This document shows, piece by piece, positions 17,279 to 60,295 of a DNA stretch of 64,000 nt. Both the position numbers and the translations under genes were made by a program. This stretch comes from a candidate division WOR-3 bacterium (GTDB lineage: Bacteria > Hydrothermota > Tepidihabitantia > B3-TA06). The stretch's first letter is position 1; every line of letters starts with the position of its first letter. A model generated the notes under the pieces. It saw only the letters and a program-made list of their open reading frames with translations. It made no database searches and had not been told where the DNA came from. The stretch lies in contig CBFGKC010000006.1 in assembly GCA_965649265.1 (NCBI GenBank), forward strand, positions 114,975 to 178,974, written 5' to 3'.

Positions 17279-17307
17279 GTTTTACTGTACCTCACTTTTC
17301 CGGACTG

Positions 17308-18469: not shown

Positions 18470-18476
18470 GATACTG

Positions 18477-19016: not shown

Positions 19017-19031
19017 TGTGCCTCCGGTGAT

Positions 19032-19547
19032 TTATTCAGTTATCTCGAGGTCGATTGTTGTATCCGCTCGCTGGTCTTCATTGTCGTATTCTGTGATTTG
19101 TATGGTTACTGTATCGGGCTCGAGGTCTCCTATATACAACTTCGCGTTCACGGCATATTCATTCGTGTAGTCTCCAGGCTCTATCTTCATGACGGTGGTG
19201 TCATTCTCGAGGATACATATCACCTTTTTCAATTCAATCCCGTTATCGGCAATTGCCTTGGCGGAAACGCTAACAGTGTCGGCCCCTGCCGTAGGATTTG
19301 GTGCCACGGAGGCGTTTTCGATTCGAGGTGATTCAATTGGCAAGTAGCAGCCGGTGGGGATACAGTTGATCATGCTGGCCGCGCTCAACGCGGTAATTCC
19401 TGTCACGAAGGCTCCGAGGAAGGTCGTTTTTACCCACCTGGAAGCCCTTGGCAGTACCCCGCATTCCTCACAGCGAGAGAAGAAGTTAAAGAGTGAGGTG
19501 CCTATCCTCCTCAAGGATTCAAAGAAAAAAAACTTTGTTCTAGCCAT
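19032..19547 (-). CDS. Array paralog 7/12
   Basis: The ORF is trimmed to the ATG at 19547 (MARTKFFFFESLRRIGTSLFNFFSRCEECGVLPRASRWVKTTFLGAFVTGITAL). A TM helix follows, then PTGCYLP...PNPTAGADTVSVSAKA. Confidence 0.55.
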   Translation of the reverse strand: MARTKFFFFESLRRIGTSLFNFFSRCEECGVLPRASRWVKTTFLGAFVTGITALSAASMINCIPTGCYLPIESPRIENASVAPNPTAGADTVSVSAKAIADNGIELKKVICILENDTTVMKIEPGDYTNEYAVNAKLYIGDLEPDTVTIQITEYDNEDQRADTTIDLEITE

Positions 19548-19629
19548 GGTTCCTCCTTTCACTGTATTAAATATAATCAACTTGCTCGGATTGTCAATCC
19601 ATGAAAATCACCTGAAATCCTGGCAGGTG

Positions 19630-20157
19630 TTATTTATCAGTAACGCGGAGAACGGTCGAGCCTATGCCCCAGCCTGAGGTTTTTGAATCGACTTTTACAA
19701 AGACCTGAGTGCTGTCCGTTTTGATTTTCTTCACGTATATGCGCCCGATGAGTTCCTCATTATTCTCGTCGAATGCGCCGTCCCTCGCTATCATCCGGAT
19801 GGTGTCTCCATCGACTATGCACTGGGCTGAGGCTATTATTTCGAGATCGCTTGCGTTTTCAAGTCTGGCTTTGGCGGTAACGGTCACCGAGTCGGCGCCT
19901 TTCGTCGGGTTAGGCTTGACTACTATCTCCGAAACCCTGGGATATACGGCCACAGGTTCGTAGCAGGTCACGAGCCCCTGATCCAGCGGAGGTTTTTTGG
20001 CGCATGCCGCAATGATGGTCAGCCACGCTCCAGCAAGCGCGAGCTTGAGCCAGCGTGATATCCTTGGCAGAGCGCTTCGTTCCTCACACCCGGTCAGAAT
20101 GGAGAACAGTGCCGAGCCTGTTCTCCTCAAAAACCTTGACAGTAACTCTCGCTTCAT
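19630..20157 (-). CDS. Array paralog 6/12
   Basis: It reads MKRELLSRFLRRTGSALFSILTGCEERSALPRISRWLKLALAGAWLTIIAACA, then VTCYEP...PNPTKGADSVTVTAKA. Its start overlaps the upstream stop by 4 nt (20154..20157). Confidence 0.6.
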   Translation of the reverse strand: MKRELLSRFLRRTGSALFSILTGCEERSALPRISRWLKLALAGAWLTIIAACAKKPPLDQGLVTCYEPVAVYPRVSEIVVKPNPTKGADSVTVTAKARLENASDLEIIASAQCIVDGDTIRMIARDGAFDENNEELIGRIYVKKIKTDSTQVFVKVDSKTSGWGIGSTVLRVTDK

Positions 20158-20726
20158 AACGAGTCCTTTTCAGTGATAAATAGCGGTAATGAAACCAGTG
20201 CTTCTTCACCCTTGGAAGTGGCCGCGTGCACGTAGACGAAGGTGGTCCCGGGTTTAAGACCCGCGACGCTGATGCGTGCCTCAATCATCTCGACGGTATC
20301 CGAGAAGCGGCCGTCCACAGGGTACATCCGGATTTTCCTTGACGTATCAATGGCCATTACGAGCCAAGCATCCGACACGTAATTGTTCTCAAGGCCAGGT
20401 TCCAGCACCCTTGCGGTGCCCGTTATCTTGACAGTGTGCACGCCCCTTGTCGGGTTCGGGCTTGCCTGAACTACTGAGATTTCGGGATCCATCCTTCTCA
20501 TCATGTAACATGTGTGGACAGGACCGTCGCCGTCTCCTCCTGGTCCGGGTCTTGCCTTTTTCCCGCACGAGGCTATCAGGGCGACAACGAGCCCGAGTAG
20601 CGAAACCTTCAAAAAGCGCGCGGTCTTTGAAAATATTGGAGTATCCTGGCATCTCGATAGCGCATTAAACACCAGATTACCTGCATTTCTGAGAACTGCA
20701 ATCAAGCTCTTTCTCATCTTTGCCAT
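20154..20726 (-). CDS. Array paralog 5/12
   Basis: It reads MAKMRKSLIAVLRNAGNLVFNALSRCQDTP, then a TM helix, then a Gly/Asp-rich insert (PGPGGDGDGP), then VHTCYMM...PNPTRGVHTVKITGTARV. Confidence 0.6.
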   Translation of the reverse strand: MAKMRKSLIAVLRNAGNLVFNALSRCQDTPIFSKTARFLKVSLLGLVVALIASCGKKARPGPGGDGDGPVHTCYMMRRMDPEISVVQASPNPTRGVHTVKITGTARVLEPGLENNYVSDAWLVMAIDTSRKIRMYPVDGRFSDTVEMIEARISVAGLKPGTTFVYVHAATSKGEEALVSLPLFITEKDSL

Positions 20727-20745
20727 TCTGCCTCTCCTATCTCGT

Positions 20746-21288
20746 TTAATCTGGTTCAGTAATCACCAGTTCTAAAGATTCAATTTCAATTTGACCGGAA
20801 GAATTTTCTACCTCTAAGTATATCCATGTCGTTTCCGGCTCAAGGTCTCCAACGTAAAGTCGGCCGACTATTCTCTCCGAAGCGGCGTCGAATTTCCCGT
20901 CAATCGCCCGCATGGGGTAATATATTGTATCTCCATCCATTCTCATGCGGGCTGAGCTTATCGTGCTTTCGCCGCTGTAGTGATCGCTAATCTTTGCCGT
21001 GGCCTTGACGGTTACCGAATCGGCGCCCCTTGTAGGGTTAGGCCTTACGGAAAGTTTGGATAGTTCTATGAGGGGAGGGGGGGCGGGCTTGTAGCACATT
21101 ATGACGTCTTCCTTTGCTTCGAGCGAGAGAGCGCTCACGAGTGCCACGAAAAATCCGAGGAATGTGAGCTTCAACCATCTTGCCGCCCCGGGGAGGATGC
21201 GGCGTTCCTCGAATCCGGAAAACGTTCCGAAAAGCCTTCCGCCAATCCTTGCAAAAAAGTCTGCCAGGCGTTTTCTGAGTTCAGGCAT
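20746..21288 (-). CDS. Array paralog 4/12
   Basis: It reads MPELRKRLADFFARIGGRLFGTFSGFEERRILPGAARWLKLTFLGFFVALVSAL, then IMCYKP...PNPTRGADSVTVKATAKI. Confidence 0.6.
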   Translation of the reverse strand: MPELRKRLADFFARIGGRLFGTFSGFEERRILPGAARWLKLTFLGFFVALVSALSLEAKEDVIMCYKPAPPPLIELSKLSVRPNPTRGADSVTVKATAKISDHYSGESTISSARMRMDGDTIYYPMRAIDGKFDAASERIVGRLYVGDLEPETTWIYLEVENSSGQIEIESLELVITEPD

Positions 21289-21289
21289 A

Positions 21290-21859
21290 TCAATCCTCCT
21301 TATTCTCGTTGCTGTCCGCTTCCGGTGCGGTGATGATTAATTGCCTCCAGGTGCTTTCCGCGTTGCCTGAGTTTGTCCTCACCACTATGTAAATCCAGGT
21401 GGTCTCCGGCTTGTGATCCCCGACGTAGAGACGGCCTTCGACTGTTTCAAGGGTATCGCCGAACTTACCGTCAACCGCTTTCATCGGATATAAAAGGGTA
21501 TCTCCGGTAAGCTGCATAATTGCTTCGGAAACAGCGGTGTCACCTGAGCAATAATATGCAGATTCCAATTTTGCGGTTGCCTTGACTGTAACGGTGTCTT
21601 TTCCTGCAGTGGGGTTCGGTGTTGCCGAGACATCGAAGATACTTAAGTGAGGTTCCTCAATAGGCACGTAGCACATGATGATATCGTCGTCCGCCTTGAG
21701 CGCTGGCGCGCCCAGCAGGGTTACCAGCAATCCCAGAACCGAAAGCTTTAGCCATCTTGCCGGTCTGCGTAGGATACCGCGTTCCTCCAATCCGGACAGT
21801 ATCCCGAATAAGGAGCCGCCTATCCGTGAAGAGATGCGGGCCAGTAAGCCTTTTGTCAT
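21290..21859 (-). CDS. Array paralog 3/12
   Basis: It reads MTKGLLARISSRIGGSLFGILSGLEERGILRRPARWLKLSVLGLLVTLLGAPAL, then IMCYVP...PNPTAGKDTVTVKATAKL. Confidence 0.6.
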   Translation of the reverse strand: MTKGLLARISSRIGGSLFGILSGLEERGILRRPARWLKLSVLGLLVTLLGAPALKADDDIIMCYVPIEEPHLSIFDVSATPNPTAGKDTVTVKATAKLESAYYCSGDTAVSEAIMQLTGDTLLYPMKAVDGKFGDTLETVEGRLYVGDHKPETTWIYIVVRTNSGNAESTWRQLIITAPEADSNENKED

Positions 21860-22435
21860 CTACTCCTCCCTGGCAGCGCTCGAATCAGCTGCGAGCGAAT
21901 CAATCCTTGTTACGGTGTAGGACTGCCAAAGAATCTCTTCATCTTCTCTGGAACTCGTCACGTCTATAAAGAACCAGTGGGTGCCGGTATCCAGGTCGCC
22001 TGTGTAAAACATGGCCTCAAGAACCTCAAGAGTGTCGTTAAGCTTGCCGTCCACGGCCTTCATGGGAATCCTCAGGGTGTCACGCTGCCTGGAAAGCCAG
22101 GCGTTTCGGATGTAATTGTTCTCAAGGGTCGGGTCCAGAACTTTTGCAGTTACCTTTACTTTTACCGAGTCCGCTCCTCGAGTCGGATTTGGTGTGATGG
22201 ACACATCCGAAATCTTTACCTCCGGCATCCTCATGGCTACGTAACAGGTCTTAATTGTTTCTACCTCGGCGGAAAGTGCTCCGATGGCTGCGGTAAGAAA
22301 TCCAAGCAGTGAGAGCTTTAACCAGCGCGAAGCGCTGGGCACAATCCCGCGCTCTTCGAATCGCGACAGGAGTGAAAAGAGACCTCCTCCCAGCACTTCA
22401 AGAATCCTTACGACGAACCCTTTCGTTCTCGCCAC
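21860..22435 (-). CDS. Array paralog 2/12 (GTG start)
   Basis: The track ORF 21860..22654 carries a non-homologous 73-aa N-terminal extension. The paralog alignment starts at the GTG at 22435 (VARTKGFVVRILEVLGGGLFSLLSRFEERGIVP), preceded by GGTGGAG. The start lies 1 nt after the stop of paralog 1. The ectodomain reads KTCYVA...PNPTRGADSVKVKVTAKV. Confidence 0.55.
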   Translation of the reverse strand: MARTKGFVVRILEVLGGGLFSLLSRFEERGIVPSASRWLKLSLLGFLTAAIGALSAEVETIKTCYVAMRMPEVKISDVSITPNPTRGADSVKVKVTAKVLDPTLENNYIRNAWLSRQRDTLRIPMKAVDGKLNDTLEVLEAMFYTGDLDTGTHWFFIDVTSSREDEEILWQSYTVTRIDSLAADSSAAREE

Positions 22436-22436
22436 G

Positions 22437-23009
22437 TCACTCCACCTTTGTCGAATCAGTCCTGATAGAATCAGGCTCCGAGACTTCAAAATAAAACCAG
22501 CTCGCTTCCAGTGCATCCTGGGATGTCTGGACGAGCATTGAGATCGAGTACTGGCCCGGTTCAAGATTTCCAACGTAAACCGTACCCTCGAGCACCTCGA
22601 GCGTGTCGTCCATCTTGCCGTCAAGTGCTTTGACCTTGAACCTCGTCGTATCACCGTCCCAGGAGAGCCAGGCGTCCTTTATGAAGTTATCCTTGATATT
22701 CGAGTACATCACCTTGGCCTGGGCCTTCACTTTCACCGAATCCGCTCCCTTCGTGGTATCAGGGGTTACGGACTTCTCTGTTATGATGACGTCGGGAATC
22801 CTCGCGACGATGTAGCAGGTGACTTCCGGATCCCTGGCTTGAAGTGAGAGTGTCGCGACTAGCGAGGCTATGATTCCCAGGGTCGAGATCTTTATCCATC
22901 TCGCGGCACGCGGCATGACGCCTTTTTCTTCTATCATTGTCAGAAAATGGAAAATTGCATCTCCCAGTTTCCCTAACAGCCTGGATAAGAGGTTGCGTGT
23001 CTTGGCCAT
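22437..23009 (-). CDS. Array paralog 1/12 (first gene of operon)
   Basis: The ORF is trimmed to the ATG at 23009 (MAKTRNLLSRLLGKLGDAIFHFLTMIEEKGVMPRAARWIKISTLGIIASLVATL), preceded by AAAGGAG. The ectodomain reads VTCYIV...PDTTKGADSVKVKAQAKV. Confidence 0.6.
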   Translation of the reverse strand: MAKTRNLLSRLLGKLGDAIFHFLTMIEEKGVMPRAARWIKISTLGIIASLVATLSLQARDPEVTCYIVARIPDVIITEKSVTPDTTKGADSVKVKAQAKVMYSNIKDNFIKDAWLSWDGDTTRFKVKALDGKMDDTLEVLEGTVYVGNLEPGQYSISMLVQTSQDALEASWFYFEVSEPDSIRTDSTKVE

Positions 23010-23059
23010 CGTCGCTCCTTTAATTCTCAATACAAGAAAACATCTCAAATATTCCCCAC

Positions 23060-23088
23060 AATATAAGCCCCAAAAGACAGGTGTCAAG
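23060..23088 (-). promoter_or_regulatory. Candidate sigma70 promoter for the 12-paralog/rSAM operon
   Basis: On the minus strand it reads TTGACA-N16/17-TATATT (the plus strand shows tgtcaa at 23083..23088 and aatata at 23060..23065). It lies about 50 nt upstream of the first paralog's start. Confidence 0.4.
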
Positions 23089-33998: not shown

Positions 33999-36530
33999 CT
34001 AATGCGCTTCGCCCCAGTTATCGCCCGAACCTATCTCGACCTCCAGGGGCACCGAGAGCTTCCACGCCGATTCCATGTCGCGCTTGACTATCTCCATCGC
34101 GCGGTCTACCTTTTTTTCAGGAACCTCGAACAGAAGCTCGTCGTGTATCTGCAGGAGCATTCCTGGCTCTATGCCTTCGTCCGTAAGACTCTTTTCGACC
34201 TTTATCATCGCGGCCTTGATGATGTCGGCTGCGGAGCCTTGCACGGGCGCGTTGATGATCGCGCGCTCGGCGACGTCGGCGCGATTGGGAACCTGCGGCA
34301 CGCGGCGCACACGTCCCGCAATCGTGGAGACGTAGCCTTTCTCCACCGCCTCCTGCACAATGCGCTCCCGCCAGGCCGATACGCCCGGGAACGACGCGAG
34401 GTAGTGATCGATGAAGTGCGCGGCCTCCTCGGTCGAGACGCCCATGCGGCGGGCGAAGCCGTAGGGACCCATGCCGTAGATGATTCCGTAGTTGATGGCC
34501 TTCGACATGCGGCGGTGGTCCGCCGTGATCTCCGATTCTTTTACCCCGAACACGCGCATGGCGGTCTCGGTGTGCACGTCGCGGTGGGCGTGGAAGATTT
34601 CTGTAAGCGCATCGTCGGCTGCGATATCGGCAAGCACGCGAAGCTCTATCTGGGAGTAGTCCGCCGACAAAAGCTTGTTGCCTGCAGCGGCCACGAAGCC
34701 CTTGCGCATCGCCGGCCCGCGCTCGCCCCTTATCGGAATATTTTGCAGGTTAGGGTTGGCGGTCGAAAGCCTGCCGGTCGAAGCGCCGGTCTGGTCGAAG
34801 GTGGTGTGAATCCTCGAATCGGAATCCACGAGCGTGACGAGCGGCCTCAGATACGTTGAAAGCAACTTGGAGAACTCCCGCCACTCGAGAATCTTCGGGA
34901 TGACCGGGTGCGCGTCCACCATCTCCTCAAGCACGTCCGCCGAGGTCGAATAGCCCGTCTTCGTGCGCCTGCGCGGCCTGATGCCTAAATCCTTGAAGAG
35001 AATTTGCTGCAGCTGCTTAGGCGAGCCTATGGTGAACTTCGTTCCGGCAAGCTCGTAAATATCGGTCTCGAGTTTTGCGAGTTCGTCCTCCCACTCGTCC
35101 GTCAACTTACCGAAATACTCAGTATCGAGCCTGACTCCGCGCTCTTCCATCTTCGCAAGAACAGGGATGAGGGGCACCTCCATCTCTTCGTAGACCTTGA
35201 GTGCGCTCACTTCCTTTAGCTCCATCTCGTAATGCTCGCCCGCATCGTGCATGAGGCTTACGGCGTCGGCCGGCGATGCCAGCGGCCTTCCTGCCGCGTG
35301 CACGAGAACGCGCTCGAGCGTTCTCAGGGAGAGATCGGAGTTTTCCACGAACGCCATAAGATGCAAATCCCAAAGCTTGCCTTTGATCTCAAACCCCAGC
35401 TTGATCAGCGGTTTGGCGTCCCAGAGAATCTTGGGAAAAGCTTTGTTCGAAAGCAACTCCCGAACTTGTTCCTCCTTGACCTCGGCAATCGTGAATCCGT
35501 CGGATGCTAGAACCCTTTCGTAGCATCCTCCGATGCAGCCTTTCTCGTCGGAAAACATGTCGGCCTGACCCGTTTTCTCCTCGAACAGGAAGGAAAGGGG
35601 GTCACCCTTCTTCGGCGCAAACTCAGCCTTCGAAATCTCGAGCGTTCCCTTCTTCTTGTCCTTCGGTTTCATGTGCGAAAGGCGCGAGGTGAAGCCGAGC
35701 TCGTTGTAGACGGCCTGCAGCGCCCCTTCGTCCTCGCTTCCGCAACGCAGGTCCTCATCCTTGATCTTCAAGGGTACGTCCTTGTGAAGCTGAACGAGTT
35801 CGTAAGAGAGCGTTGCTATCTGTCTGTGTTCTGCCAGCTTCTCGTCCTTTTCGAGCGCGGTCGCGAGGTTACCGTACTTCTCGATAAGAGCGAGCGCACG
35901 TTTTGGACCGATGCCGGGAACGCCCGGTATGCCGTCCGACGAGTCGCCCATGAGTGCGAGGAGGTCCGTTACCTTTTCGGGCGTCACTCCCATCTTCGTC
36001 TTCACTCCCTTTGAGTCGAACTCCTCGTCCTTGTAGGTGTCGTAAACGACTACATTATCTCCCACCAGTTGCGTCAAATCCTTGTCGCCCGAGACAATCA
36101 CGATCTTCGTGAACTTTTCCCTGAAACGCTCCGTTATCGTGGCCATGATATCGTCGGCCTCGTAACCCTCGAGTAAAAAGACGGGCAGGCCCTGCATCTT
36201 GGCGATTTCAGCGATCATGGGAACCTGCCAGATAAGCTCGTCTGGCGTCTCGGGTCTGTCCTTCTTGTAGTCTCGGAACTTTTCGTGCCTGAATACTTCT
36301 CTTCCTGCGTCGAACGTGATGACAATGGAATCCGTCGGGTAGCGTTCCCTTATCTTGTCCATGGCCTGAAGGAACCCGTAAATCGCCGAGGTGTTGCGAC
36401 CTTTTGTGTCTCTCAGGGGGTTGCGGATAAGGGCGAAGTACGAGCGGTAGGCTATGGAGTGGCCATCAATCAGGACAAGTATCACGCCCCCCTCCCAGCC
36501 TTCCTCGCCCTCCTCGCCCTCCTCAGGCAC
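33999..36530 (-). CDS. polA: DNA polymerase I
   Basis: The 5'-3' exonuclease N-terminus is visible (LVLIDGHSIAYRSYFAL). Polymerase motifs A (DYSQIELRVLA), B (RRMSKAINYGIIYGM) and C (QIHDELLFEV) are present. The acidic MPEEGEEGEEGWEGG extension is probably upstream of the true GTG start near 36485. Confidence 0.85.
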   Translation of the reverse strand: MPEEGEEGEEGWEGGVILVLIDGHSIAYRSYFALIRNPLRDTKGRNTSAIYGFLQAMDKIRERYPTDSIVITFDAGREVFRHEKFRDYKKDRPETPDELIWQVPMIAEIAKMQGLPVFLLEGYEADDIMATITERFREKFTKIVIVSGDKDLTQLVGDNVVVYDTYKDEEFDSKGVKTKMGVTPEKVTDLLALMGDSSDGIPGVPGIGPKRALALIEKYGNLATALEKDEKLAEHRQIATLSYELVQLHKDVPLKIKDEDLRCGSEDEGALQAVYNELGFTSRLSHMKPKDKKKGTLEISKAEFAPKKGDPLSFLFEEKTGQADMFSDEKGCIGGCYERVLASDGFTIAEVKEEQVRELLSNKAFPKILWDAKPLIKLGFEIKGKLWDLHLMAFVENSDLSLRTLERVLVHAAGRPLASPADAVSLMHDAGEHYEMELKEVSALKVYEEMEVPLIPVLAKMEERGVRLDTEYFGKLTDEWEDELAKLETDIYELAGTKFTIGSPKQLQQILFKDLGIRPRRRTKTGYSTSADVLEEMVDAHPVIPKILEWREFSKLLSTYLRPLVTLVDSDSRIHTTFDQTGASTGRLSTANPNLQNIPIRGERGPAMRKGFVAAAGNKLLSADYSQIELRVLADIAADDALTEIFHAHRDVHTETAMRVFGVKESEITADHRRMSKAINYGIIYGMGPYGFARRMGVSTEEAAHFIDHYLASFPGVSAWRERIVQEAVEKGYVSTIAGRVRRVPQVPNRADVAERAIINAPVQGSAADIIKAAMIKVEKSLTDEGIEPGMLLQIHDELLFEVPEKKVDRAMEIVKRDMESAWKLSVPLEVEIGSGDNWGEAH

Positions 36531-44344: not shown

Positions 44345-44644
44345 ATTACCCCAAAATAATACTCCGTATTCTTTTGGGGACCCCGTAAGACACGAAAGCG
44401 CGAATCCCACACAAGCCCCTTCAGATTTTCCTCAGCCCTCCTCAGCCCCCCTCACTCTCCCCTCAACTCGCCTCAGTTCCCCTCAGCCTTCCTCGGTTCT
44501 TTACGTATTGGCATCGCGCGTGATTTGTAAATTTGTCGTCGATCGCGAACAATCAATCTCTTAATTATTTCTAACCCTTTTATTTGTCGCGGCTGATTAT
44601 TTTTATGAGGATGTGAATCGCAGGCGTAGTTGTGGAAGAAGGGG

Positions 44645-44724: not shown

Positions 44725-46359
44725 TTACTTTACGATAGTTACCTTTGCGGTCCTGGTACCCGCGCCGTTGTCGAGCCTGACGAAATAGACTCCTGTTGGA
44801 ACATGACGTCCCACATCGTCCGTGCGATTCCAGGAGAGCGTGTGATTGCCAGCGCTCGCCTCGGTGCTCGCAAGCATCCGCACCAGCCTGCCCGACGCGT
44901 CGAATACGGAAAGTGTCATGCTTCCGGCCTTCGGCAATTGGTAGTTGATGCGGACGCTGCCCGATGCCGACATATCGTTCACCGAAAGACTCAGCTCGCG
45001 AACCATCTCCATTGTTTGCGATTGCGGGGTCTCAACCTCGTTGCTTGAGGGGGGGAGGGGTATTGTCGAAAGTCCGAGAAGCTTCTGTGAGGTCTCGAGC
45101 TTCCGTATCTTTTCCGTGACCGCCTTGTAATCGGTCTTCTGCTCCCTGCCCTTTACACGCGCGATGGCCATCCAGCTGAAGGTCGCGTTGAGGTCGCCTA
45201 CCTCGGATACCGCGGTGAATCCTCTTGTCGTCACGTCCTTCACGTATATGCCCGAGTAGGATCCCTCGGGTGTCACTATCACTTTGATCGGTATCTGACT
45301 CGATATCACCTGCGGGTACGGTTCCTCGAACTCTATCCTTGCAATGCCGTTGGAAAGCTTCGTGCGTCCCGATATGGTGTATTCGGGATACGGTGCTTCG
45401 GTGGCCGACATGGTCACCCAGGTGCCGTCGTCCATCTTGATCACGTTGTCCTTGTCGCCCGTTACGTAAAGGTCACCCTGTATAAGGACGTCTCCTAAAA
45501 AGTTGCCTGCATAGGGGGTGCCGACGATTTCGATTCCGGCATTCGCGGTTCCGATATATACGTAGTTCGATCCAAGTCCTTTGATGTATGCGCCCCAGTT
45601 GCTGCCTGCAAGGGCTGCTTCGGAGCCGTTTACGTGAAGGAATTGTCCCGCCAGAGAGCTTGTAGATGCCGCGTAAGCGTACAACCCCCTGGTCGAACTG
45701 CCCAGGTATGCGTTGTTGCCGTTATTATTTCGACCGAACACTCCGTAACTTGCGGAACCTATATATCCGTAGTTGCCCGATGAGCTTCTGCCGTATACCC
45801 CGTAGGAAGAATGACCCAGTATCCCGTAATTCGAATTTGAATTCGCTCCGTATGCGCCGTAAGTCGAGGAGCCAAGATAGGCGTAATTCCCGTTGCCGTT
45901 CGCGGCATAGGCAGCGTAGTCATTCGAACCTATATATCCATAGTTGTTGCTCGAGGAATCCTTGCCATAGACCCCGTAGTCGGTGGAAGCCAGATAACCG
46001 TAGTTGCCCAGGTTATGACTGCCGTATGCCCCATAGCTGAAGGAACCCAGATATCCGAGATTCCCTGATGAGTACTTGCCGTATGCGCCGTAGCCGATTG
46101 AAGCGATGTGCCCCTGGTTTCCCGAATAGTGCTCGCCGTACACGCCGAACAAGGTGTATCCCAGATAACCCAGGTTTCCGTTCGCGTTCTCTCCATACGC
46201 GCCGAAGTAGAAGTGACCCAGATATCCAACAGTCGAGGACAGTGTAGAGGTTCCTTTTACTCCCCAGTAATCACCTGAACCTTCCACCTGTACGGCGAAA
46301 AGGTTTATGCAGGCGAGCATTACACTCGCGATGACGACGAGTTTTTTTATTGTGGACAT
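44725..46359 (-). CDS. Secreted Tyr/Gly-rich tandem-repeat protein with T9SS CTD
   Basis: The signal peptide is MSTIKKLVVIASVMLACINLFA. About 11 consecutive units of roughly 15 aa follow (GYLGSFSYGAYGSHNLGNY / GYIGSNDYAAYAANGNGNY ...). The C-terminus is GVYFVRLDNGAGTRTAKVTIVK. Confidence 0.65.
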   Translation of the reverse strand: MSTIKKLVVIASVMLACINLFAVQVEGSGDYWGVKGTSTLSSTVGYLGHFYFGAYGENANGNLGYLGYTLFGVYGEHYSGNQGHIASIGYGAYGKYSSGNLGYLGSFSYGAYGSHNLGNYGYLASTDYGVYGKDSSSNNYGYIGSNDYAAYAANGNGNYAYLGSSTYGAYGANSNSNYGILGHSSYGVYGRSSSGNYGYIGSASYGVFGRNNNGNNAYLGSSTRGLYAYAASTSSLAGQFLHVNGSEAALAGSNWGAYIKGLGSNYVYIGTANAGIEIVGTPYAGNFLGDVLIQGDLYVTGDKDNVIKMDDGTWVTMSATEAPYPEYTISGRTKLSNGIARIEFEEPYPQVISSQIPIKVIVTPEGSYSGIYVKDVTTRGFTAVSEVGDLNATFSWMAIARVKGREQKTDYKAVTEKIRKLETSQKLLGLSTIPLPPSSNEVETPQSQTMEMVRELSLSVNDMSASGSVRINYQLPKAGSMTLSVFDASGRLVRMLASTEASAGNHTLSWNRTDDVGRHVPTGVYFVRLDNGAGTRTAKVTIVK

Positions 46360-46702
46360 TGTTGCCTCCTATGGTCGTTTTTTATGGAGACAGGGAAACA
46401 CCGACATTGTGCCCCGGAAAATCACGTTGTGTTTTTCCGCTCGTCCCGCCCATACTGCTTGACTCGATGCCAGCAATGGGACCTCCTGCTATCCACAAAT
46501 CCTCCTGCGGTCGAACGAAAGCGGCGCACGACGCTGGTTCGACCCGGCGCCATCCGGGCGCGTCCTAAAAATAACGGAAGTAACACTTCCGCCAGGCGCC
46601 TTCCGGGCGCAAGCCCTCCTTGCTGTCTCGCAAGTTTATGGTATACCTGCAATACAGCCGCCGCAGGATTTTATTCCATTTAATTAGACCGGGCCGCACA
46701 AG

Positions 46703-48294: not shown

Positions 48295-48996
48295 CTAGTG
48301 AATCACCACTAACTTTGAGGTGTAGTCAATGTAGAACGAGCTGTCGGGAACGATGAATCTCGTAAAATAGATGCCAGCAGGCAAGGTCGAGAAGTCTTTC
48401 TGTATTGAGTGTGAACCTGCGCAGTAATTACCACTTAGTATTGTCTCGATTAACGCTCCCCGGAAATCGTAGAGAGCCAGGTGAACTACCATGGGTTTCG
48501 GTATCGCGTAGTTCAAACCGGCAGTTCCTGAGACTATTGAAGGGAAGTGCGGCGGTCTTTCTAACCGCAACTTTCGCGATGCGGTGTCGTTTCTTGCAAC
48601 GGTATCGTATGGATTCGAGACCCGCGCGAAAATCATGAAGGAATCAACGTCTTGAGAAGAGAAAGGCTTGTGAGAGTAGACGACCGTCTTTCCGGGCGCA
48701 AGCGCGTTTACGTACAACGTGTCTGTGTAAACCACCTGGTTTGTGGTAAGAGATGTTATCGTGAAGTAAAAATCGGCATAGGTGTGATGCGAGCTGAAAC
48801 TCTCTACGGTGCATCCGATCTTGATCTTACTATCAGGATACAAGTCATAGGCATAAAGACTACCAGCATAATTGATACTTGTTATCCAGAGGTCAAGGCT
48901 GTCGCCTGCCTGCAAACCTCTCTCAGGCGTGTTCGCTGCATTCATCGCGCTTGCTGAGACAAGAAGAAGTGTCGCTGTCAGAATTTTATTTCCCAT
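48295..48996 (-). CDS. Secreted protein with T9SS CTD
   Basis: The signal peptide is MGNKILTATLLLVSASAMNA. The C-terminus is AGIYFTRFIVPDSSFYIDYTSKLVVIH. Confidence 0.5.
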   Translation of the reverse strand: MGNKILTATLLLVSASAMNAANTPERGLQAGDSLDLWITSINYAGSLYAYDLYPDSKIKIGCTVESFSSHHTYADFYFTITSLTTNQVVYTDTLYVNALAPGKTVVYSHKPFSSQDVDSFMIFARVSNPYDTVARNDTASRKLRLERPPHFPSIVSGTAGLNYAIPKPMVVHLALYDFRGALIETILSGNYCAGSHSIQKDFSTLPAGIYFTRFIVPDSSFYIDYTSKLVVIH

Positions 48997-52178: not shown

Positions 52179-52260
52179 CACAGTCGAAACAATCTGAATA
52201 GCATCTTCCTAAGTCATCTATAATATGCGGAGCTTTTTTTGTAAGTATTTATGCCGCATA

Positions 52261-52288
52261 TTGACAAATTACCCTTACATCGTATCAT
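52261..52288 (+). promoter_or_regulatory. sigma70-like promoter (TTGACA-16-TATCAT) preceded by an 8-bp inverted repeat overlapping the -35 element
   Basis: ttgaca is at 52261..52266 and tatcat at 52283..52288. The inverted repeat ATATGCGG (52223..52230) / CCGCATAT (52254..52261) flanks it. An AAGGAGGAG Shine-Dalgarno site precedes the ATG at 52314. Confidence 0.45.
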
Positions 52289-52313
52289 TTTGCAAACGAG
52301 AAGGAGGAGTATT

Positions 52314-53723
52314 ATGAAACCTATGTGTTTTCTTTCAATAACGTTTTCGTGTATATTTTTTTTCCTCTCCACGGTCGTACGCGCCGAGGATGTTCCCGTT
52401 AACGTCTGGAACAAGGTCTATGATTCAGGCAAGAACGACGTACCTTACGCTATTGCGGTGGATGATTCGGGCTACGTTTACGTCGCGGGACTTTATTACA
52501 ATGGTGAGAACAGCGATTTCAGAACCATAAAATTCGACCCGGACGGGGAGATTGCATGGAACAAAACATTCGGGCCTGCAACCGAAGATATTGCCTGGGC
52601 GGTTGCGGTCAGCAGTACGGGTTCGGTATACGTTGCAGGTGAATCCAAGGATGCCTACGAACTGGTCAAATATGACTCGAAAGGAACCGAACTCTGGAAC
52701 AAATCATACGAATCCCAGTATAAATATTCGGACGCGGCGTACGGGATAGCCCTGGATGAGGATAACGGTTTTTGTTACCTTACCGGCAAGGTTCACAACA
52801 CGGCTACCGGAAACAACGATTACAGGACAATAAAATGCGATACATCCGGCAACAAGAAATGGGACAACAAATACGATTCGGGCGCAGATGACTGCGCATA
52901 CGGGGTGACAGTAGACAAAGACGGTAACGCTTACGTGACAGGCGGCATCAACTCCGACACGAGTGTGATGACCGTCAAGTATGGTCCTACCGGAAATACC
53001 GTCTGGAAAAAAACATACTCCGGAGGCGATAAAAATGTTGGATATTCCATAATAACAGATAATGGCGGTTCTTTTTATGTCGCCGGAATGTCGAAAAGCA
53101 GTGCCGGGAATATGGATTATCGCACCGTCAAATACGATCTTGCCGGAAATATGAAATGGGAGAAGCTATATGGATCGAGTAACAATGAGTTTGCCTGTGA
53201 TGTTGCGCTTGATGACAAGGGTTTCTTGTACGTAACAGGTTCATATTACGAGGGGTCATATCCTTTCTCCAGAACCATGAAGTACGATTCTCTTGGAAAC
53301 ATCCAGTGGGAGTTTGCTTATGATCAAGGCTCGAGGGAAGAAAGCGAGGGCGTAGCCGTGGATGCTGACGGGAACATCTACATCATCTGTAAATCTTACA
53401 ACGGCAAGGATAACGATTTCAGGCTTTTAAAATATCGGCAGTCTTCAGGGATAGCGGAAACGTTTTTTAAACCTGAAGATATGAATCTGGAACTTGAAAA
53501 TAAAGGATCCTTTTGGACTGTAGCCTACTCTCTTGTGGATTCCGGCCCAATAGAGCTGTCGATTTTTGATGTCAGAGGTACGAGGGTTGCAACGTTAGAT
53601 CACGGTTTTCGAAGCTCAGGCACACACTCTCTTGTCTGGATTCCGGAGGTAAATGGGGTATATTTCCTTAAGCTTTCGAAAGGGGCGAGCGTCGAAAACA
53701 GGAAAGTAGTGGTAATTCGCTAG
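52314..53723 (+). CDS. Secreted SBBP-type beta-propeller repeat protein with T9SS CTD
   Basis: The ORF is trimmed to the ATG at 52314 (MKPMCFLSITFSCIFFFLSTVVRA). The repeats follow the pattern YDSG..D.AYAIAVDDSGYVYVAG......DF.TIKYD.DG...W. The C-terminus is GVYFLKLSKGASVENRKVVVIR. Confidence 0.65.
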   Translation: MKPMCFLSITFSCIFFFLSTVVRAEDVPVNVWNKVYDSGKNDVPYAIAVDDSGYVYVAGLYYNGENSDFRTIKFDPDGEIAWNKTFGPATEDIAWAVAVSSTGSVYVAGESKDAYELVKYDSKGTELWNKSYESQYKYSDAAYGIALDEDNGFCYLTGKVHNTATGNNDYRTIKCDTSGNKKWDNKYDSGADDCAYGVTVDKDGNAYVTGGINSDTSVMTVKYGPTGNTVWKKTYSGGDKNVGYSIITDNGGSFYVAGMSKSSAGNMDYRTVKYDLAGNMKWEKLYGSSNNEFACDVALDDKGFLYVTGSYYEGSYPFSRTMKYDSLGNIQWEFAYDQGSREESEGVAVDADGNIYIICKSYNGKDNDFRLLKYRQSSGIAETFFKPEDMNLELENKGSFWTVAYSLVDSGPIELSIFDVRGTRVATLDHGFRSSGTHSLVWIPEVNGVYFLKLSKGASVENRKVVVIR

Positions 53724-53887: not shown

Positions 53888-55546
53888 ATGTCAAAAAACA
53901 AGTTTTTGTTACTGTGCATAGTTACCCTCGTGACAATGAGTTCCGGGTATGCTGTTTTGCCTCCGGAGGAGGTTTGGAACGTACCATACAGCTCAGGGGA
54001 CTTCGTGAGAGGTTATGATCTCGCAGTTGATGCACAGGGAAATGTATTCGTCGCAGGCGAGTACGATAACGGCATGGATAATGATTTTCTTATCATCAAA
54101 TATGACCCTTCAGGTACGGTATTGTGGTACAGGATTTTCGACTCCGGTGGAAATGATGAACCGCAGTCGATAATCCTTGACGCCGGCGGTAACGTTTACG
54201 TCTGCGGCTCTTTCGTGGATACTCTCGTACCCGGAACCGTTCACGCAAGACTTCTTAAGTACAATTCCGCCGGGGACAGCCTTTTAAACGCATCGTACGG
54301 TTTTTCGGCTTTCACCAGGCTGTACGCCGTAACCATTGATAAATCGGGCGGCCTTTATCTGGCCGGCTACACGACGAATCCATCGAACTCGGATTTTCTA
54401 TTCATGCAATGCGATACGATTACCGGCGACACTCTCTGGACAAAAGTTTATGATTCAGGAAGGGAAGAGAGTGTCTACGGTATTGCGGTCGATACGCTCG
54501 GTAACATTTTCGTGACCGGGACTGCAGGAGCAGATGCCGATACCACGGACGTAAGGACCATTAAATACGGTCCTACTCGCACTATTTTGTGGAACGAGCT
54601 CTACAACTCCGGCAGCTACGATGACGCCGGGGATCTTTCGCTTGACGGACAGGGCAACGTTTACGTCGGCCTTTCGAGCTACAACTCGTCAGGGAATGCC
54701 GACTATAGATTAATCAAGTACGACTCCGGCGGTGGTATTGTCTGGAACAAATATTATGACGCCGGCTCCGAGGACTGGCTGAATGACGTGATTTGCGATG
54801 AATCGGGTAACGCCTACATAACCGGTATGTCACTAAGCGGGCCGACCAACAGTGACATAAGAACCATGAAATATACACCTGACGGGGATATCGAATGGTA
54901 TAAGGTCTACGACTCTGGAACCCGTTTCAACGCCTTGTTAGGAGATGGTGCCAGTGGCATTGTTCTTGACGGACTCGGCTATGTTTATGTTACTGGTTAC
55001 TACGCGACACCAGGCAGCGTGAGTATCCGCACAATAAAGTACAGGCAGTTTTTTACCATAGCCGGTAAAACAAGTCAGCCCTATGCTACCTTGAATCTTG
55101 ATGGAGCCGTTACTGCCCAGACAATGTCCGATTCGAACGGCTACTACCAGTTTCTCGATCTTTCTTGCGGAAAGGATTACACGGTTACACCCAGTCTTGA
55201 TGGTTATACCTTTGAACCGTCATACAGGAAATATTCTCCTCTTATAAGCCACATGTTTCTTGAGGATTACACTGCTACACCGACTGGAATTGAAGACCTT
55301 TCGCAAATACGAGCAATTTCGCTCGAGGTATCCGCAAATAATGTAAGATACACTATCGATGAGCCCGGATTCGTAAAGCTTAGCGTTTACGATGCATGCG
55401 GCCGCAATGTTGCGTCCCTTTTCGAAGGCATCCTTTCACCGGGAGAGTTCAATGCCGACTGGAAACCACAGGCTGCCGGGGTCTACTTCGTCAAGTTGGA
55501 CGTGTCGAACAAATCGGTAACAAAAAAGATAACTTTCATAAAGTAA
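53888..55546 (+). CDS. Secreted SBBP-repeat protein with CarboxypepD_reg-like domain and T9SS CTD
   Basis: A GGAGG site is followed by the ATG. SBBP-like repeats are present (GYDLAVDAQGNVFVAG ... DFLIIKYDPSG). A carboxypeptidase-regulatory-like segment follows (YQFLDLSCGKDYTVTPSLDGYTFEP). The C-terminus is GVYFVKLDVSNKSVTKKITFIK. Confidence 0.65.
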   Translation: MSKNKFLLLCIVTLVTMSSGYAVLPPEEVWNVPYSSGDFVRGYDLAVDAQGNVFVAGEYDNGMDNDFLIIKYDPSGTVLWYRIFDSGGNDEPQSIILDAGGNVYVCGSFVDTLVPGTVHARLLKYNSAGDSLLNASYGFSAFTRLYAVTIDKSGGLYLAGYTTNPSNSDFLFMQCDTITGDTLWTKVYDSGREESVYGIAVDTLGNIFVTGTAGADADTTDVRTIKYGPTRTILWNELYNSGSYDDAGDLSLDGQGNVYVGLSSYNSSGNADYRLIKYDSGGGIVWNKYYDAGSEDWLNDVICDESGNAYITGMSLSGPTNSDIRTMKYTPDGDIEWYKVYDSGTRFNALLGDGASGIVLDGLGYVYVTGYYATPGSVSIRTIKYRQFFTIAGKTSQPYATLNLDGAVTAQTMSDSNGYYQFLDLSCGKDYTVTPSLDGYTFEPSYRKYSPLISHMFLEDYTATPTGIEDLSQIRAISLEVSANNVRYTIDEPGFVKLSVYDACGRNVASLFEGILSPGEFNADWKPQAAGVYFVKLDVSNKSVTKKITFIK

Positions 55547-55721: not shown

Positions 55722-56708
55722 ATGGTCGGCTATACCCCCTCTGAAGACCCGCGTTACGCATTTGTCATCGGTCGCGTAAGATCGCGGGAAGCTCGTATGT
55801 TGAATCGCCAGCAGTTCGACAGGCTGCTCGAGGCTCGTACCGAGAGTCAGATGCTTTCAAATCTAGCGGATACACCCTACTCGGAAACTCGCGCCGAAGA
55901 CATTGAAACCATGCTTATGCGTGCCGCGTCAGAGGAGGAGGCGTTCTTCTACCGGTATCTTGAAAATGAAAGGATACTTGACTTTTTTAAGGCACCTGAT
56001 AGAGCCTCTAATCTTAAATTTGCGTTGAGACGCAAGTACCGGGGGGAGGTGGAGGATTCACTTTTTATTTCTGACGCTCCTTCCTCAATGGAGGTGTTAG
56101 CCAGGTATCTTGAAGGAGAGTCCGTTATAGTCCCTGACTGGATGCGCGCTGCGGCCGGGAAAGTGGTCGCGGCGAATATCGAAAAAATCGATCCATCGAG
56201 CATAGATGTGATTGTGGATTCGGCTCTGATTATGCATCAACATACCCTTTCAGAGGGGTCTTCTTTTCTTGAGAAGCTGCTGTCGTTAAGGGTCGATTTT
56301 GCCAACCTTCTTGCTTTTTTACGAATAAAGGTTTCAGGGGAGGAGGGGGATGAATTCTCGAAAACGTTTCTTCCTTACGGTACGATTTCAATCGCTCGTT
56401 TCAACTCATGGTCGCAGCTGGGTTGGGATTCCTTGCCGCGGGAGGTAAAAAAAACAGAGATTTTCAAAAAACTAGAAGAAGGATTAAAGGAACTGCCGGA
56501 TAGTTTTCTTTTACTCGAACGTGAAATCAAGGAGGAGGAACTCTCATACCTTTTGTCGACAAGACGATTGGTTTTTGGATATGAACCCCTGGTGGGTTAC
56601 AGTCTTCTCAAGAGAGAAGAGCGCCGCAACATTCAAAGGGTAGCTACAGGTTTGCGGTACGGTCTTGAAAAAGAAACAATAAGGAAGTCCATTGCCTGGT
56701 TTGACTGA
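55722..56708 (+). CDS. atpC: V-type ATP synthase subunit C
   Basis: The product is 328 aa. The N-terminal YAFVIGRVRSREARML matches the subunit C signature (YAYVNARVR...). It lies immediately upstream of the F-A-B-D genes. Confidence 0.7.
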   Translation: MVGYTPSEDPRYAFVIGRVRSREARMLNRQQFDRLLEARTESQMLSNLADTPYSETRAEDIETMLMRAASEEEAFFYRYLENERILDFFKAPDRASNLKFALRRKYRGEVEDSLFISDAPSSMEVLARYLEGESVIVPDWMRAAAGKVVAANIEKIDPSSIDVIVDSALIMHQHTLSEGSSFLEKLLSLRVDFANLLAFLRIKVSGEEGDEFSKTFLPYGTISIARFNSWSQLGWDSLPREVKKTEIFKKLEEGLKELPDSFLLLEREIKEEELSYLLSTRRLVFGYEPLVGYSLLKREERRNIQRVATGLRYGLEKETIRKSIAWFD

Positions 56709-57018
56709 AATTTGTGTCCTTGGCCCGGAGGAGCTTCTGGAACCATTCAGGGCCGTCGGGCTTGCCGGTTCGGTTGCGGACAAGAGCAGCGCCCTCGAAC
56801 GGGCAAGAACGCTCGCACAGAGTGAGTACAAGATAGTTTTTTATGACGAGGAATTCTATCCGCTCCTCAAGGATTTTCTCCTTAAGCGACCTGGCGGGGT
56901 TTTCCCAACCTACATCCCCGTTCCCTCTCTTTCCGGAGGAGAACGATACGCCATGGAGCGGCTGAGAGAGTTAATAAAAAAGGCCATAGGAGTTGACGTC
57001 TACTTGGAGGCCAAGTGA
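56692..57018 (+). CDS. atpF: V-type ATP synthase subunit F
   Basis: The product is 108 aa ([20 protein letters not shown]). It has a TTG start. It is coupled to atpC by a 17-nt overlap and to atpA by a 4-nt overlap. Confidence 0.65.
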
Positions 57019-58787
57019 GAAAAGAAGAAACTGGTCGAATAGTAAAGGTATCGGGCCCGCTGGTCATTGCCGAGGGTATGAGTACCTCAAAGATGTACGA
57101 CGTGGTTAAAGTGTCGGACAAGCGTCTTGTTGGTGAAATTATTGGATTGTCAGGCACTCGTGCCTCGATACAGGTTTACGAGGAGACAGGCGGTATCGGC
57201 CCCGGTGAACCCGTATATCCGACATACGAACCCCTTTCCGTGGAGCTTGGTCCGGGTCTTATTGAGGCCATTTACGACGGGATTCAGCGTCCCCTGTCAG
57301 ATATAGCGGATAAAACGGGAGCCTTCATATCCCGAGGTGTTGAAGTGCCTGCGCTGCCGCGCGACAAGAAATGGGATTTCGTCCCCTCCCTCAAGAAGGG
57401 CGACAAGGTTGGGCCTGGCGATGTGCTCGGAACGGTCAAGGAAACGATACTCATCGAGCACCGTATACTGGTTCCACCGGGTGTATCCGGCGAAATCGTA
57501 GAAATATCAAAAGGCTCGTTTAACGTGGAGTCGACCGTTGCCGTCATCAAATCACCCGAAGGTAAAAGCATCGAAGTCGCAATGATGCAGCGCTGGCCGG
57601 TCAGAAAACCCCGTCCGTATATGCGCAAATATTCGCCATTTGAGATTCTATCCACGGGGCAGCGCGTTGTGGACACGTTCTTCCCGCTCGGAAAGGGTGG
57701 AACCGCATGCGTTCCAGGGCCGTTCGGATCGGGCAAGACCGTCATCCAGCATCAGCTGGCCAAGTGGGCGGATGCCGAAGTGATCGTCTACGTGGGCTGC
57801 GGCGAGCGCGGAAACGAGATGACCGATGTGCTCATAGAGTTCCCGGAACTCAAGGACCCCAAATCGGGCGAGCCCCTTATGAAACGCACGGTGCTCATCG
57901 CCAACACATCGAACATGCCGGTTGCCGCACGGGAAGCGTCGGTCTACACCGGTATTACGATAGCCGAGTACTTCCGTGACATGGGGTATTCGGTTGCCCT
58001 CATGGCCGACTCAACCTCGCGCTGGGCCGAGGCCATGCGAGAGATTTCCGGACGCCTCGAGGAGATGCCCGGTGAAGAAGGTTATCCTGCATATCTTTCC
58101 GCTCGCATCGCCGAGTTCTACGAACGCGCTGGACTTGTCGAATGTCTGGGCTCGACCTCGAAAAGAGGGGCCCTGTCCGTTATCGGCGCCGTGTCCCCTC
58201 CGGGCGGCGACCTTTCGGACCCGGTCGTTCAAGCCACCTTGCGCGTCGTAAAGGTTTTCTGGTCGCTAGAGGACAAACTGGCCTACGCCCGCCATTTTCC
58301 TGCAATTTCCTGGTTGCGCTCTTACTCCTTATATGTCGATTCGATCTCGGCAAAGCTGCGTGAAGAGATAGGAACTAACTTCCTTGAGGATACGAAGGAA
58401 GCCATGAGACTCTTGCAGGAGGAGGCCGATCTGACCGAGATAGTCCGACTCATCGGCATTGACGCACTTTCACCTAACGAACGCCTCATTATGGAAGCGG
58501 CGCGTTCGATTCGCGAGGACTTTCTGCACCAGAACGCGTTCCACGAGATTGACACGTACGCCAGCCTTGATAAACAGGCACGTATGCTTTCCCTTGTTCT
58601 CTGCTACTACAAAGAAACCAAGAAGGCACTCGAACAGGGAGCACTTCTTGAAGATCTCGTCAGCCTCCAGGTTCGTGAAAAGATTGCCCGAGCTCGCTAC
58701 CTGCCTGAGAGCGAGCGCGAAACCATCACTAAAACCGAGGAGGAGGTTATCGCTGAAATCGCTTCCTTAAAGAAGGAGGTCTCCTGA
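57015..58787 (+). CDS. atpA: V-type ATP synthase catalytic subunit A
   Basis: The Walker A motif is GPFGSGKTV. The sequence [13 protein letters not shown] and the A-type non-homologous insert are present. The product is 590 aa. Confidence 0.9.
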
Positions 58788-60295
58788 TGCCCCGTAACAC
58801 CCGTAACACACCCAATCCCTCCCATAACACCTCCCAAACTCTTGAGGAAACCTCTGGTTTAAAGCCTACTGTGGAAGATAAACCCAAGGGTATAATCGAT
58901 TACCAGACGATTACCTCTGTTTCTGGTCCACTCCTTCTCGTTGAGGGAGTCGAAGGAGTCAAGTATGAGGAGCTTGTTGAGATATTCCTTCCCTCAGGCG
59001 AACGCCGCAGGGGAAGGGTGCTTGAGGTTAACCAGGACAAGGCGCTCATACAGATATTTGAGGGTTCCTCGGGAATCGAGATAGGCCAGACAAGGGTACG
59101 CTTTCTTGGCAAGGGCATAACCTTGGGGGTCTCCGAGGAACTTCTCGGCCGCGTATTCGACGGCCTGGGCCGCCCGCGCGACAGCTCACCCGAGCTTATC
59201 CCTGAAGAATTTCGCGACATCAACGGTCTTCCAATCAATCCCTTCGCTCGCAGCTACCCCAACGAGTTTATCGAGACAGGCATCTCCGCTATAGACGGAT
59301 TGAACACGCTAGTACGTGGGCAGAAGCTTCCTATCTTCTCCGGTTCCGGTTTGCCGCACAACCGCATGGCGGCTCAGATAGCGCGTCAGGCAAAAGTACT
59401 CGGCGCAGCGGAGGAGTTTGCGGTGGTGTTCGGCGCAATGGGCATCACGTTCGAGGAAGCCCAGTTCTTTATCGATGATTTCCGCCGTACAGGGGCCCTT
59501 GAGCGCGCGGTACTCTTTCTTAACCTTGCGGACGACCCTGCAATCGAGCGAATCGCGACACCGCGTGTTGCGTTCACCGCAGCGGAGTATCTCGCCTTTA
59601 CGAAGAATTATCACGTCCTCGTTATCCTCACAGACCTGACCAATTACTGCGAGGCCCTTCGTGAGATATCCGCCGCCCGAAAGGAGATTCCCGGTCGGCG
59701 CGGTTACCCCGGCTATCTATACACCGATCTTGCCACCATCTACGAGCGATCAGGCCGCATCAAGGATTCGACCGGTTCCATAACCCTCGTTCCCATTCTC
59801 ACCATGCCCGAGGACGACAAGACCCACCCTATTCCAGACCTTACCGGGTATATCACCGAGGGGCAGATCATCCTTTCCCGCGTACTCAATAACAAGAACG
59901 TCGCTCCGCCGGTAGACGTACTCCCCTCCCTCTCCCGTCTCAAGGACAAGGGTATAGGCAAGGGAAAAACTCGCGAGGATCACGCGGATTCGTTTAACCA
60001 GCTTTACGCCGCGTATGCACGAGGCAAGGAAGCCCAGGAACTGGCCGTGATTCTCGGTGAGGCGGCGTTGACCGATATCGACAAGCTTTACATGAAATTT
60101 GCCGAGGCGTTCGAGCGCCGCTACATTTCCCAGGGCGAGTACGAGGCTCGCAGCATCGAGGAGACACTTGATTTGGGTTGGGAGCTTTTGACCAGTCTTC
60201 CGCGTTCGGAGATGAAGCGCGTTCGGGACGAAAACCTTGCAAAGTATTACGATACCGCGTTCGCAAAATTCCAGAAGACCGGGGAGAAATCATAA
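58787..60295 (+). CDS. atpB: V-type ATP synthase subunit B
   Basis: The product is 502 aa and closely follows the B-subunit pattern ([20 protein letters not shown]). It starts in an ATGA overlap with atpA. Its first roughly 30 codons are an N-terminal extension ([15 protein letters not shown]...) that is partly encoded by CCGTAACAC repeats. Confidence 0.85.

Follow-up and report, generated by a model that had tools for sequence, protein, structure and literature searches.

A tyrosine- and glycine-rich hairpin repeat with a T9SS-type sorting domain in a candidate surface fibre of a WOR-3 bacterium

Fibres built from repeats are a means by which many bacteria and phages reach and hold surfaces, and most of the known types of fibre shaft derive from cultured organisms. 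In tail fibres, Peptidase_S74 acts as an intramolecular, trimerising chaperone. In type A cargo of the type IX secretion system (T9SS), which comprises surface proteins of Bacteroidota and relatives, passenger domains stand between a signal peptide and a disordered linker, and an immunoglobulin (Ig)-like domain of ~85 residues that matches TIGR04183 follows. Among short beta repeats, the MORN unit is a hairpin of 23 residues with GxG and YEGEW motifs, and its arrays are stabilised by aromatic stacking and conserved glycines (PMC7725318). The ice nucleation protein (INP) is built from 16-residue solenoid coils with the consensus AGYGSTQTAGEESSLT (PMC9418140). Here we describe an open reading frame (ORF) of a WOR-3 bacterium, located at 44725-46359 on the minus strand of the 64-kb stretch of DNA that was analysed (the window, to which coordinates refer unless stated otherwise) and encoding a protein of 544 residues. 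We give a probability of about 55% to the reading that this protein is a T9SS-exported, probably trimeric, length-variable surface fibre of WOR-3; a surface fibre was also proposed in the original prediction, an annotation made from the sequence alone, and it is still the best reading. The protein falls within a well-known class, that of fibre-like surface proteins of bacteria, and its repeat and the beta-sandwich that follows are modules, so far uncurated, of a fibre-like family with a modular build.

The central part of the protein, residues 45-235, is an array of ten units that align in register with the consensus G-Y-L-G-S-x-x-Y-G-[AV]-Y-G-x-x-x-x-G-N-Y and is composed of 22% glycine, 18% tyrosine, 15% serine and 12% asparagine. 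Autocorrelation of the protein showed peaks at lags of 19, 38 and 57 residues (0.39, 0.34 and 0.33) with sub-peaks at 8 and 11. When only the array was considered, lag-19 identity rose to 0.42, which corresponds to z = 18.6 against 5000 composition-preserving shuffles (best-lag mean 0.18, standard deviation 0.013), and lag-15 identity was 0.03, under background. The DNA has a period of 57 nt (identity 0.51), and identity at lag 45 is 0.21, at or under background. On the basis of the lag-19 peak and the 57-nt DNA period, the unit is 19 residues long and not 15. The near-periodic Tyr/Gly-rich array noted in the original prediction is therefore far beyond chance, but the 15-residue, 45-nt period given there has to be replaced by one of 19 residues and 57 nt; the repeat examples it listed are themselves 19-20-mers, at odds with its own claim, and ten recognisable units were found in place of about 11.

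Copies of the repeat share ~51% nucleotide identity on average, with a maximum of 68%, and Tandem Repeats Finder reported no DNA tandem repeat within the fibre gene because the copies are too diverged. The array is thus an old, diverged protein-level repeat, neither a recent nor a slippage-prone DNA repeat. A hidden Markov model (HMM) built from seven of the ten units re-detected eight of the ten strongly, and a six-frame scan with it recovered nine, one of them weak, and found no second copy of the repeat elsewhere in the window. The layout of the gene, from the ribosome-binding site to the C-terminus, is as follows (AF2, AlphaFold2).

46365..46370, minus strand: Shine-Dalgarno sequence AGGAGG, 5 nt before the ATG, read in the upstream sequence
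46294..46359, minus strand: Sec-type signal peptide, residues 1-22 (MSTIKKLVVIASVMLACINLFA, cut before VQ), read by eye
46228..46293, minus strand: N-terminal cap (EGSGxxWGVKG) and first degenerate hairpin, residues 23-44, from the orthologue alignment and AF2
45655..46227, minus strand: ten YG repeats of 19 residues each (one of 20), residues 45-235, from autocorrelation, shuffles, the unit HMM and AF2
45463..45654, minus strand: degenerate hairpins and shaft-end cap motif (YAGNFLGDVLIQGDLYVTG), residues 236-299, the strand pattern reaching residue 279
45130..45462, minus strand: beta-sandwich domain 'MID', residues 300-410, the best conserved part of the protein
44995..45129, minus strand: helix (411-427) and disordered Pro/Ser/Glu linker, residues 411-455, from AF2
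44728..44994, minus strand: T9SS type A C-terminal sorting domain (Ig-like, FlgD_ig-type), residues 456-544, from profile matches

An AF2 monomer model was built on 47 homologues and reached a mean predicted local distance difference test (pLDDT) score of 81. In the repeats, the model places two 4-residue strands per unit at pLDDT 95-97 in the array core, and over residues 34-279 it contains 26 short strands forming 13 hairpins. With two strands for each repeat, the modelled shaft is an antiparallel hairpin ribbon ~12 nm long and not a solenoid. One unit is predicted to form one beta-hairpin, composed of the strand x-G-Y-L, the loop G-S-x-x-Y-G, the strand [AV]-Y-G-x and the loop x-x-x-G-N. 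A pairing register of L3-A10, Y2-Y11 and G1-G12 was inferred from strand positions and not from coordinates; with this register, tyrosines 2, 11 and 19 would form ladders on one face, and a stripe of Leu/Ala/Val with glycines on either side, well suited to tight packing with further chains, would lie on the opposite face. N-terminal to the array, the cap has the invariant residues G27, V34 and G36 across the orthologue alignment and strands at 34-37 and 44-47. The beta-sandwich (~residues 305-405) is modelled at pLDDT ~93 and the Ig-like C-terminal domain at residues 457-542, with residues 430-452 of the linker disordered between them (pLDDT below 50). The putative signal peptide, judged by inspection, has two lysines, a hydrophobic core of 15 residues and a possible cleavage site at LFA; orthologues keep it, and it is modelled as a helix over residues 3-19. 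A lipoprotein signal was ruled out, as the lipobox is poor and orthologues do not conserve the cysteine at residue 17.

In structure comparison, the repeat part was best matched by single-layer sheets, namely MORN repeats, the CPAP G-box and the central sheet of OspA. Compared with MORN, in which strands are 6 residues long, the window protein has strands of 4 residues and no GxG or YEGEW motif; MORN (PF02493) is also absent from the Pfam matches at E<=1, and with a unit of 19-20 residues only the fold class is in common. The predicted setting differs too from those of MORN, the CPAP/SAS-4 G-box and OspA, the window protein being probably extracellular with a family context that is fibre-like and suggests a trimer.

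The composition, rich in Gly, Asn, Ser and Tyr, could instead point to a cross-beta or beta-solenoid stack, that is, a functional amyloid or an array that binds ice or surfaces, of the curli CsgA or INP kind, and a two-strand unit of 19 residues could in principle make one solenoid coil. INPs share with the window protein a Gly/Tyr/Ser-rich short tandem repeat with a GYGS motif, a tyrosine ladder and an association with the outer membrane (PMC9418140). However, the INP repeat is a 16-residue parallel beta-solenoid with TxT and SLT water-organising motifs, whereas the window protein has units of 19-20 residues, no TxT and a modelled antiparallel ribbon. Together with the lack of any Curlin or ice-nucleation match, this makes a solenoid or amyloid array very improbable, and the amyloid analogy drawn in the original prediction is not borne out. 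Its statement that the repeat does not follow the curli CsgA consensus agrees with our search, as Curlin_rpt is absent from the Pfam and NCBIfam matches at E<=1 and the model is a hairpin ribbon.

Searches for other known repeat families were similarly blank. The repeat had no Pfam match at E<=1, whether in the window protein or across the 47 homologues as summarised, and no NCBIfam or PHROGs match in the window protein, and PDB sequences gave nothing meaningful with the protein, a three-unit repeat profile or two C-terminal domain profiles. Pfam and NCBIfam recognise only the C-terminus of the window protein and, in its relatives, only S74 and unrelated N-terminal domains. In particular, no Pfam match was obtained to the ice nucleation repeat (PF00818, a 16-residue AGYGSTxTAxxxSxLT solenoid). 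YadA/Hep_Hag, with its 14-residue repeat and C-terminal YadA anchor, gave no model at E<=1, and the C-terminus of the window protein is a T9SS sorting domain. The CW_binding_1 'YG' repeats (PF01473, a hairpin of ~20 residues) were absent from the Pfam matches at E<=1 and nothing was found in PDB sequences. As no model matches, there is no support for placing the repeat in the MORN, ice-nucleation, curlin, YadA or CW_binding families, despite the MORN/G-box-like fold class.

The beta-rich domain and T9SS C-terminal domain that the original prediction placed after the array were both recovered, the former in the AF2 model and the latter in profile matches as well. The C-terminal region matched TIGR04183 (T9SS type A) over residues 470-542 with a score of 32.6 bits, the cutoff being 23, and a Pfam scan gave PF13860 (FlgD_ig) a score of 38.6 against a cutoff of 27. 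In structure comparison, the modelled domain resembles the C-terminal domains (CTDs) of PorU, PorZ and mirolase, and, as in type A members, the predicted Ig-like fold sits at the extreme C-terminus after a flexible linker. Targeting to the T9SS is thus supported as originally proposed. With its putative signal peptide, the protein has the same order of parts as type A cargo and differs in its passenger, a previously uncurated repeat shaft, and in its host, a WOR-3 bacterium.

Four more window proteins carry a T9SS-type C-terminus (4886-7207, minus strand; 52251-53723, plus; 53888-55546, plus; 48295-48996, minus), which fits a T9SS-rich genome. Three of the four exceed the TIGR04183 cutoff, two of these being SBBP beta-propeller proteins; the fourth, an ORF of 233 residues, has only a pairwise match to the sorting domain of the fibre protein (E 5e-10, 30% identity).

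In order to delimit the family, a word-indexed search was performed with the whole protein, which matched 135 proteins, and an exhaustive HMMER search against 1.84 billion cluster representatives was performed with the repeat region alone, which matched 256 representatives at E<=1e-3, 96 at E<=1e-10 and 11 at E<=1e-30. The YG-repeat family is therefore real but not large, and fairly rare. Named members from the whole-protein search come from Bacteroidota, Zixibacteria, KSB1 and Planctomycetota, the window protein itself being from WOR-3. Across the family the units are spaced by 20 or 19 residues with the same consensus as in the window protein. A scan of genome contigs added two distant loci only. 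PF26696, a precomputed annotation in eight distant homologues, covers, judging by shared sequence, an N-terminal domain that is absent from the window protein.

Five close relatives can be aligned across the entire non-repeat part, and they carry ~6, 5, 8, 4 and 11 repeats compared with 10 in the window protein. In the four closest, identity is 80-86% in the beta-sandwich and 48-63% in the repeats; the corresponding values for the fifth, P0006, are 64% and 45%. The repeat is thus kept in many relatives with a varying copy number (4-11 in close orthologues). The two outcomes that the original prediction had named as fatal to it, a match to a known repeat family and a repeat that is not conserved in any relative, are both contradicted, since no family matches and the repeat is conserved. 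One of the five, P0004, is the positional orthologue in a syntenic WOR-3 locus (L009, 8001-9392), where the neighbours match those of the window (DUF401, FecCD/ABC transporter, TonB, ARPP-1 and V-ATPase). This protein stops after the helix, and the sorting domain is gone with no detectable remnant. As an SSB gene and small ORFs sit in the place of the sorting domain, filling the gap from the P0004 gene to the ABC transporter, the arrangement suggests that the 3' end was replaced through insertion.

Modularity was counted in 231 collected family proteins. A cap motif, [AG][GAN]xFxG[DN][VLI], lies C-terminal to the repeats in 99 of them. After the shaft, 29 members carry Peptidase_S74, ~80 an IDHP beta-sandwich, ~40 a sandwich of the window type and 27 a module of the P0008 type. 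These C-terminal modules are largely alternative, and S74 and the P0008-type module never occur together with the others. The T9SS sorting domain is added only by the window protein and three close orthologues. One composite fibre protein is P0088, with 691 residues and encoded on a fragment of a Planctomycetota metagenome-assembled genome, which contains LamG, PASTA, a collagen triple helix, YG repeats and Peptidase_S74 in this order, so that its YG shaft sits between two trimer-forming elements. In a control prediction in monomer mode, the YG region of this protein again showed two strands per unit at pLDDT 90-94, and the collagen part was unconfident; the hairpin unit is therefore a robust local prediction. 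Family members reside on contigs of several hundred kb, and some occur in tandem clusters of S74-bearing fibre-like genes or beside T9SS cargo genes. One such cluster (L005, 1-11477, on a 781-kb contig) holds at least five tandem fibre-like genes, three of them with Peptidase_S74 and one of them encoding the YG-repeat protein P0008, followed by a Peptidase_C10 gene.

By homology, the shaft of the window protein is most likely a homotrimer, because the collagen triple helix and/or the trimerisation chaperone Peptidase_S74 occur in other members of the family. The end modules, P0088 and the phage tail proteins that match best in a viral structure library (see below) together favour a trimeric fibre. 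Nevertheless, several findings speak against a T9SS-exported, trimeric fibre. The window protein itself has neither S74 nor collagen, and the equal confidence of the P0088 model as a monomer means that the model cannot tell a monomer from a trimer. With respect to export, Pfam Por_Secre_tail (PF18962) scored 23.5, under its gathering score of 27, T9SS machinery genes were not seen within the 64 kb of the window, and no paper was found on T9SS in WOR-3. The sorting domain is also absent from two of the five close relatives (P0004 and P0006), which indicates that T9SS export is not essential to the core module. Finally, no ligand or binding function was indicated in any result. A literature search likewise returned nothing relevant on Tyr/Gly repeats in T9SS cargo or on cellular S74 proteins.

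Some of these points would suit a shaft that does not trimerise, a monomeric single-layer beta-sheet ribbon of the MORN, CPAP G-box or OspA kind that serves as a spacer or binding platform stabilised by its tyrosine ladders. The pLDDT of 95-97 in monomer mode, the single-layer sheets as best structural matches of the repeat part and the lack of a known trimerisation module in the window protein are consistent with such a ribbon, and MORN arrays are likewise hairpin repeats held by aromatic stacking and conserved glycines (PMC7725318). The inferred register would, however, leave a continuous Leu/Ala/Val stripe exposed to solvent in a monomer. The same repeat is found between collagen and S74 in relatives, where AF2 in monomer mode is equally confident, and monomer models of phage fibres look similar. 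We consider a monomeric ribbon unlikely.

The points about export would suit a protein that does not use the T9SS, in which the C-terminus is a FlgD-like Ig domain and the protein is periplasmic or bound to the surface via another route. FlgD_ig is indeed the best Pfam match, Por_Secre_tail falls under its cutoff, P0004 and P0006 lack the domain and the window shows no T9SS machinery. A route other than the T9SS is nonetheless improbable given a TIGR04183 score above the curated cutoff, the position of the domain, which as in known cargo ends the chain behind a disordered linker, its likeness to the CTDs of PorU, PorZ and mirolase, and the four other proteins in 64 kb with the same kind of C-terminal domain.

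The fibre-like relatives also raise the question of a phage origin. The architecture of the window protein is of the same kind as that of S74 phage-type fibres, such as endosialidases and tail fibres, with a repetitive beta shaft that follows an N-terminal part and leads through a cap to a C-terminal module. The S74 chaperone of tail fibres occurs in homologues, and when a viral structure library (BFVD) was searched with Foldseek, the top matches were monomer models of phage proteins of the tail, minor tail and tail-fibre-like types. Unlike S74 phage fibres, the window protein is chromosomal, has no S74 and carries a putative signal peptide and a T9SS sorting domain. It has no PHROG match, and its locus is flanked by housekeeping genes and syntenic with another WOR-3 genome. 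A tblastn search against 50,697 phage records gave no match, a negative in which the low-complexity filter may hide repeats; for this reason, IMG/VR was scanned with two degenerate DNA patterns of the canonical unit. Alignments A1 and A3 were too variable to serve in pattern scans. Among 2.9 million IMG/VR contigs, the two patterns found 0 and 1 loci, and the single match lies in a tail protein of a phage, where the motif occurs once and by chance. The reading as a tail fibre gene of a phage or prophage is therefore effectively refuted, and the S74 phage tail fibre was rejected as an identity for the window protein.

For the T9SS-exported fibre, the following course of events may be proposed. 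The protein would be exported by Sec into the periplasm, where folding would start at the C-terminal sandwich and proceed to the capped YG shaft, probably as a trimer. The T9SS would then recognise the type A sorting domain and take the protein across the outer membrane, the sorting domain would be cleaved off within the disordered linker, and the protein would end up either anchored on the outside of the cell or free. In this model the YG array is a rigid shaft, and gain or loss of repeats, of which close orthologues carry 4-11, would determine how long the fibre is. The ladders of tyrosines would steady the thin sheet in the way that stacked aromatic residues steady MORN arrays, and they may in addition offer a surface for interactions.

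A more far-reaching proposal, which we regard as a long shot, is that the YG unit represents a new structural class, a tyrosine-ladder hairpin fibre made as a single layer or from three ribbons, in which the repeat is functional rather than a passive spacer. If true, the flat face with ~30 regular tyrosines on hairpins ~9.6 A apart would serve to bind an ordered substrate, for example a crystalline polysaccharide, a mineral, ice or the surface lattice of another cell; alternatively, the tyrosine face would drive lateral self-assembly into a coat. Irrespective of such a role, the 19-20-residue Tyr/Gly repeat is absent from the curated databases searched (Pfam, NCBIfam, PHROGs and PDB), yet it is predicted very confidently and recurs in poorly known environmental phyla with swappable end modules. 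Its description would name and delimit a module that is now annotated only as 'hypothetical', would add a compact aromatic-ladder hairpin scaffold to the known beta-repeat architectures and would give a candidate surface structure for WOR-3, the cell biology of which is essentially unknown.

The conserved sandwich that follows the shaft is itself an unannotated domain in hundreds of proteins. Its profile matches 416 proteins, and the best 120 of these are all short ORFs of 100-186 residues without Pfam annotation; among PDB sequences, the profile found no relative. The IDHP and window-type sandwiches aligned in hhalign with a probability of 66% and an E value of 5.7e-5 and are probably homologous. 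The domain is highly conserved and stands where other members have a trimerisation chaperone, which suggests that it may act as a C-terminal nucleus for folding or oligomerisation, or as a knob. On a 1.29-Mb metagenomic contig (L011, 5375-6498), a gene encodes 178 residues that comprise a signal peptide, a short fibre-type domain at the N-terminus and Peptidase_S74, and an ORF for a window-type sandwich of 165 residues begins 90 nt after it; the same protein is present on 23 contigs. This pair represents a fibre cassette that is either minimal or decayed.

The genes neighbouring the fibre gene are housekeeping genes and include a FecCD/ABC transporter, DUF401, PolA and V-ATPase; no csg-like genes were seen among the neighbouring ORFs scanned. 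The DNA polymerase I gene lies at 33999-36530, and its product is 67-73% identical to WOR-3 proteins, with the next best matches at ~45% at most. A V-type ATPase operon is located at 55722-60295 on the plus strand, in which subunits C and A were identified. On the basis of this operon and DNA polymerase I, the window is ordinary WOR-3 chromosomal DNA. A short intergenic C-rich tandem repeat, with the unit CCTCAGCCCC in ~5.8 copies, occupies 44430-44488, where the ABC-transporter ATPase gene ends on one side and the fibre gene has its 3' end on the other.

Finally, the minus strand at 16113-23087 and 15089-16111 carries about twelve tandem paralogous ORFs of 175-264 residues with a radical SAM and SPASM gene directly downstream. 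None of the three paralogues tested gave a Pfam match. Their common layout comprises an amphipathic N-terminus, a conserved ARW-K-L motif, a hydrophobic segment, a TCY motif and PNPT-G-ADSVTVKA, and together with the radical SAM gene they may form either a multi-substrate maturase cluster or an array of surface-protein paralogues.

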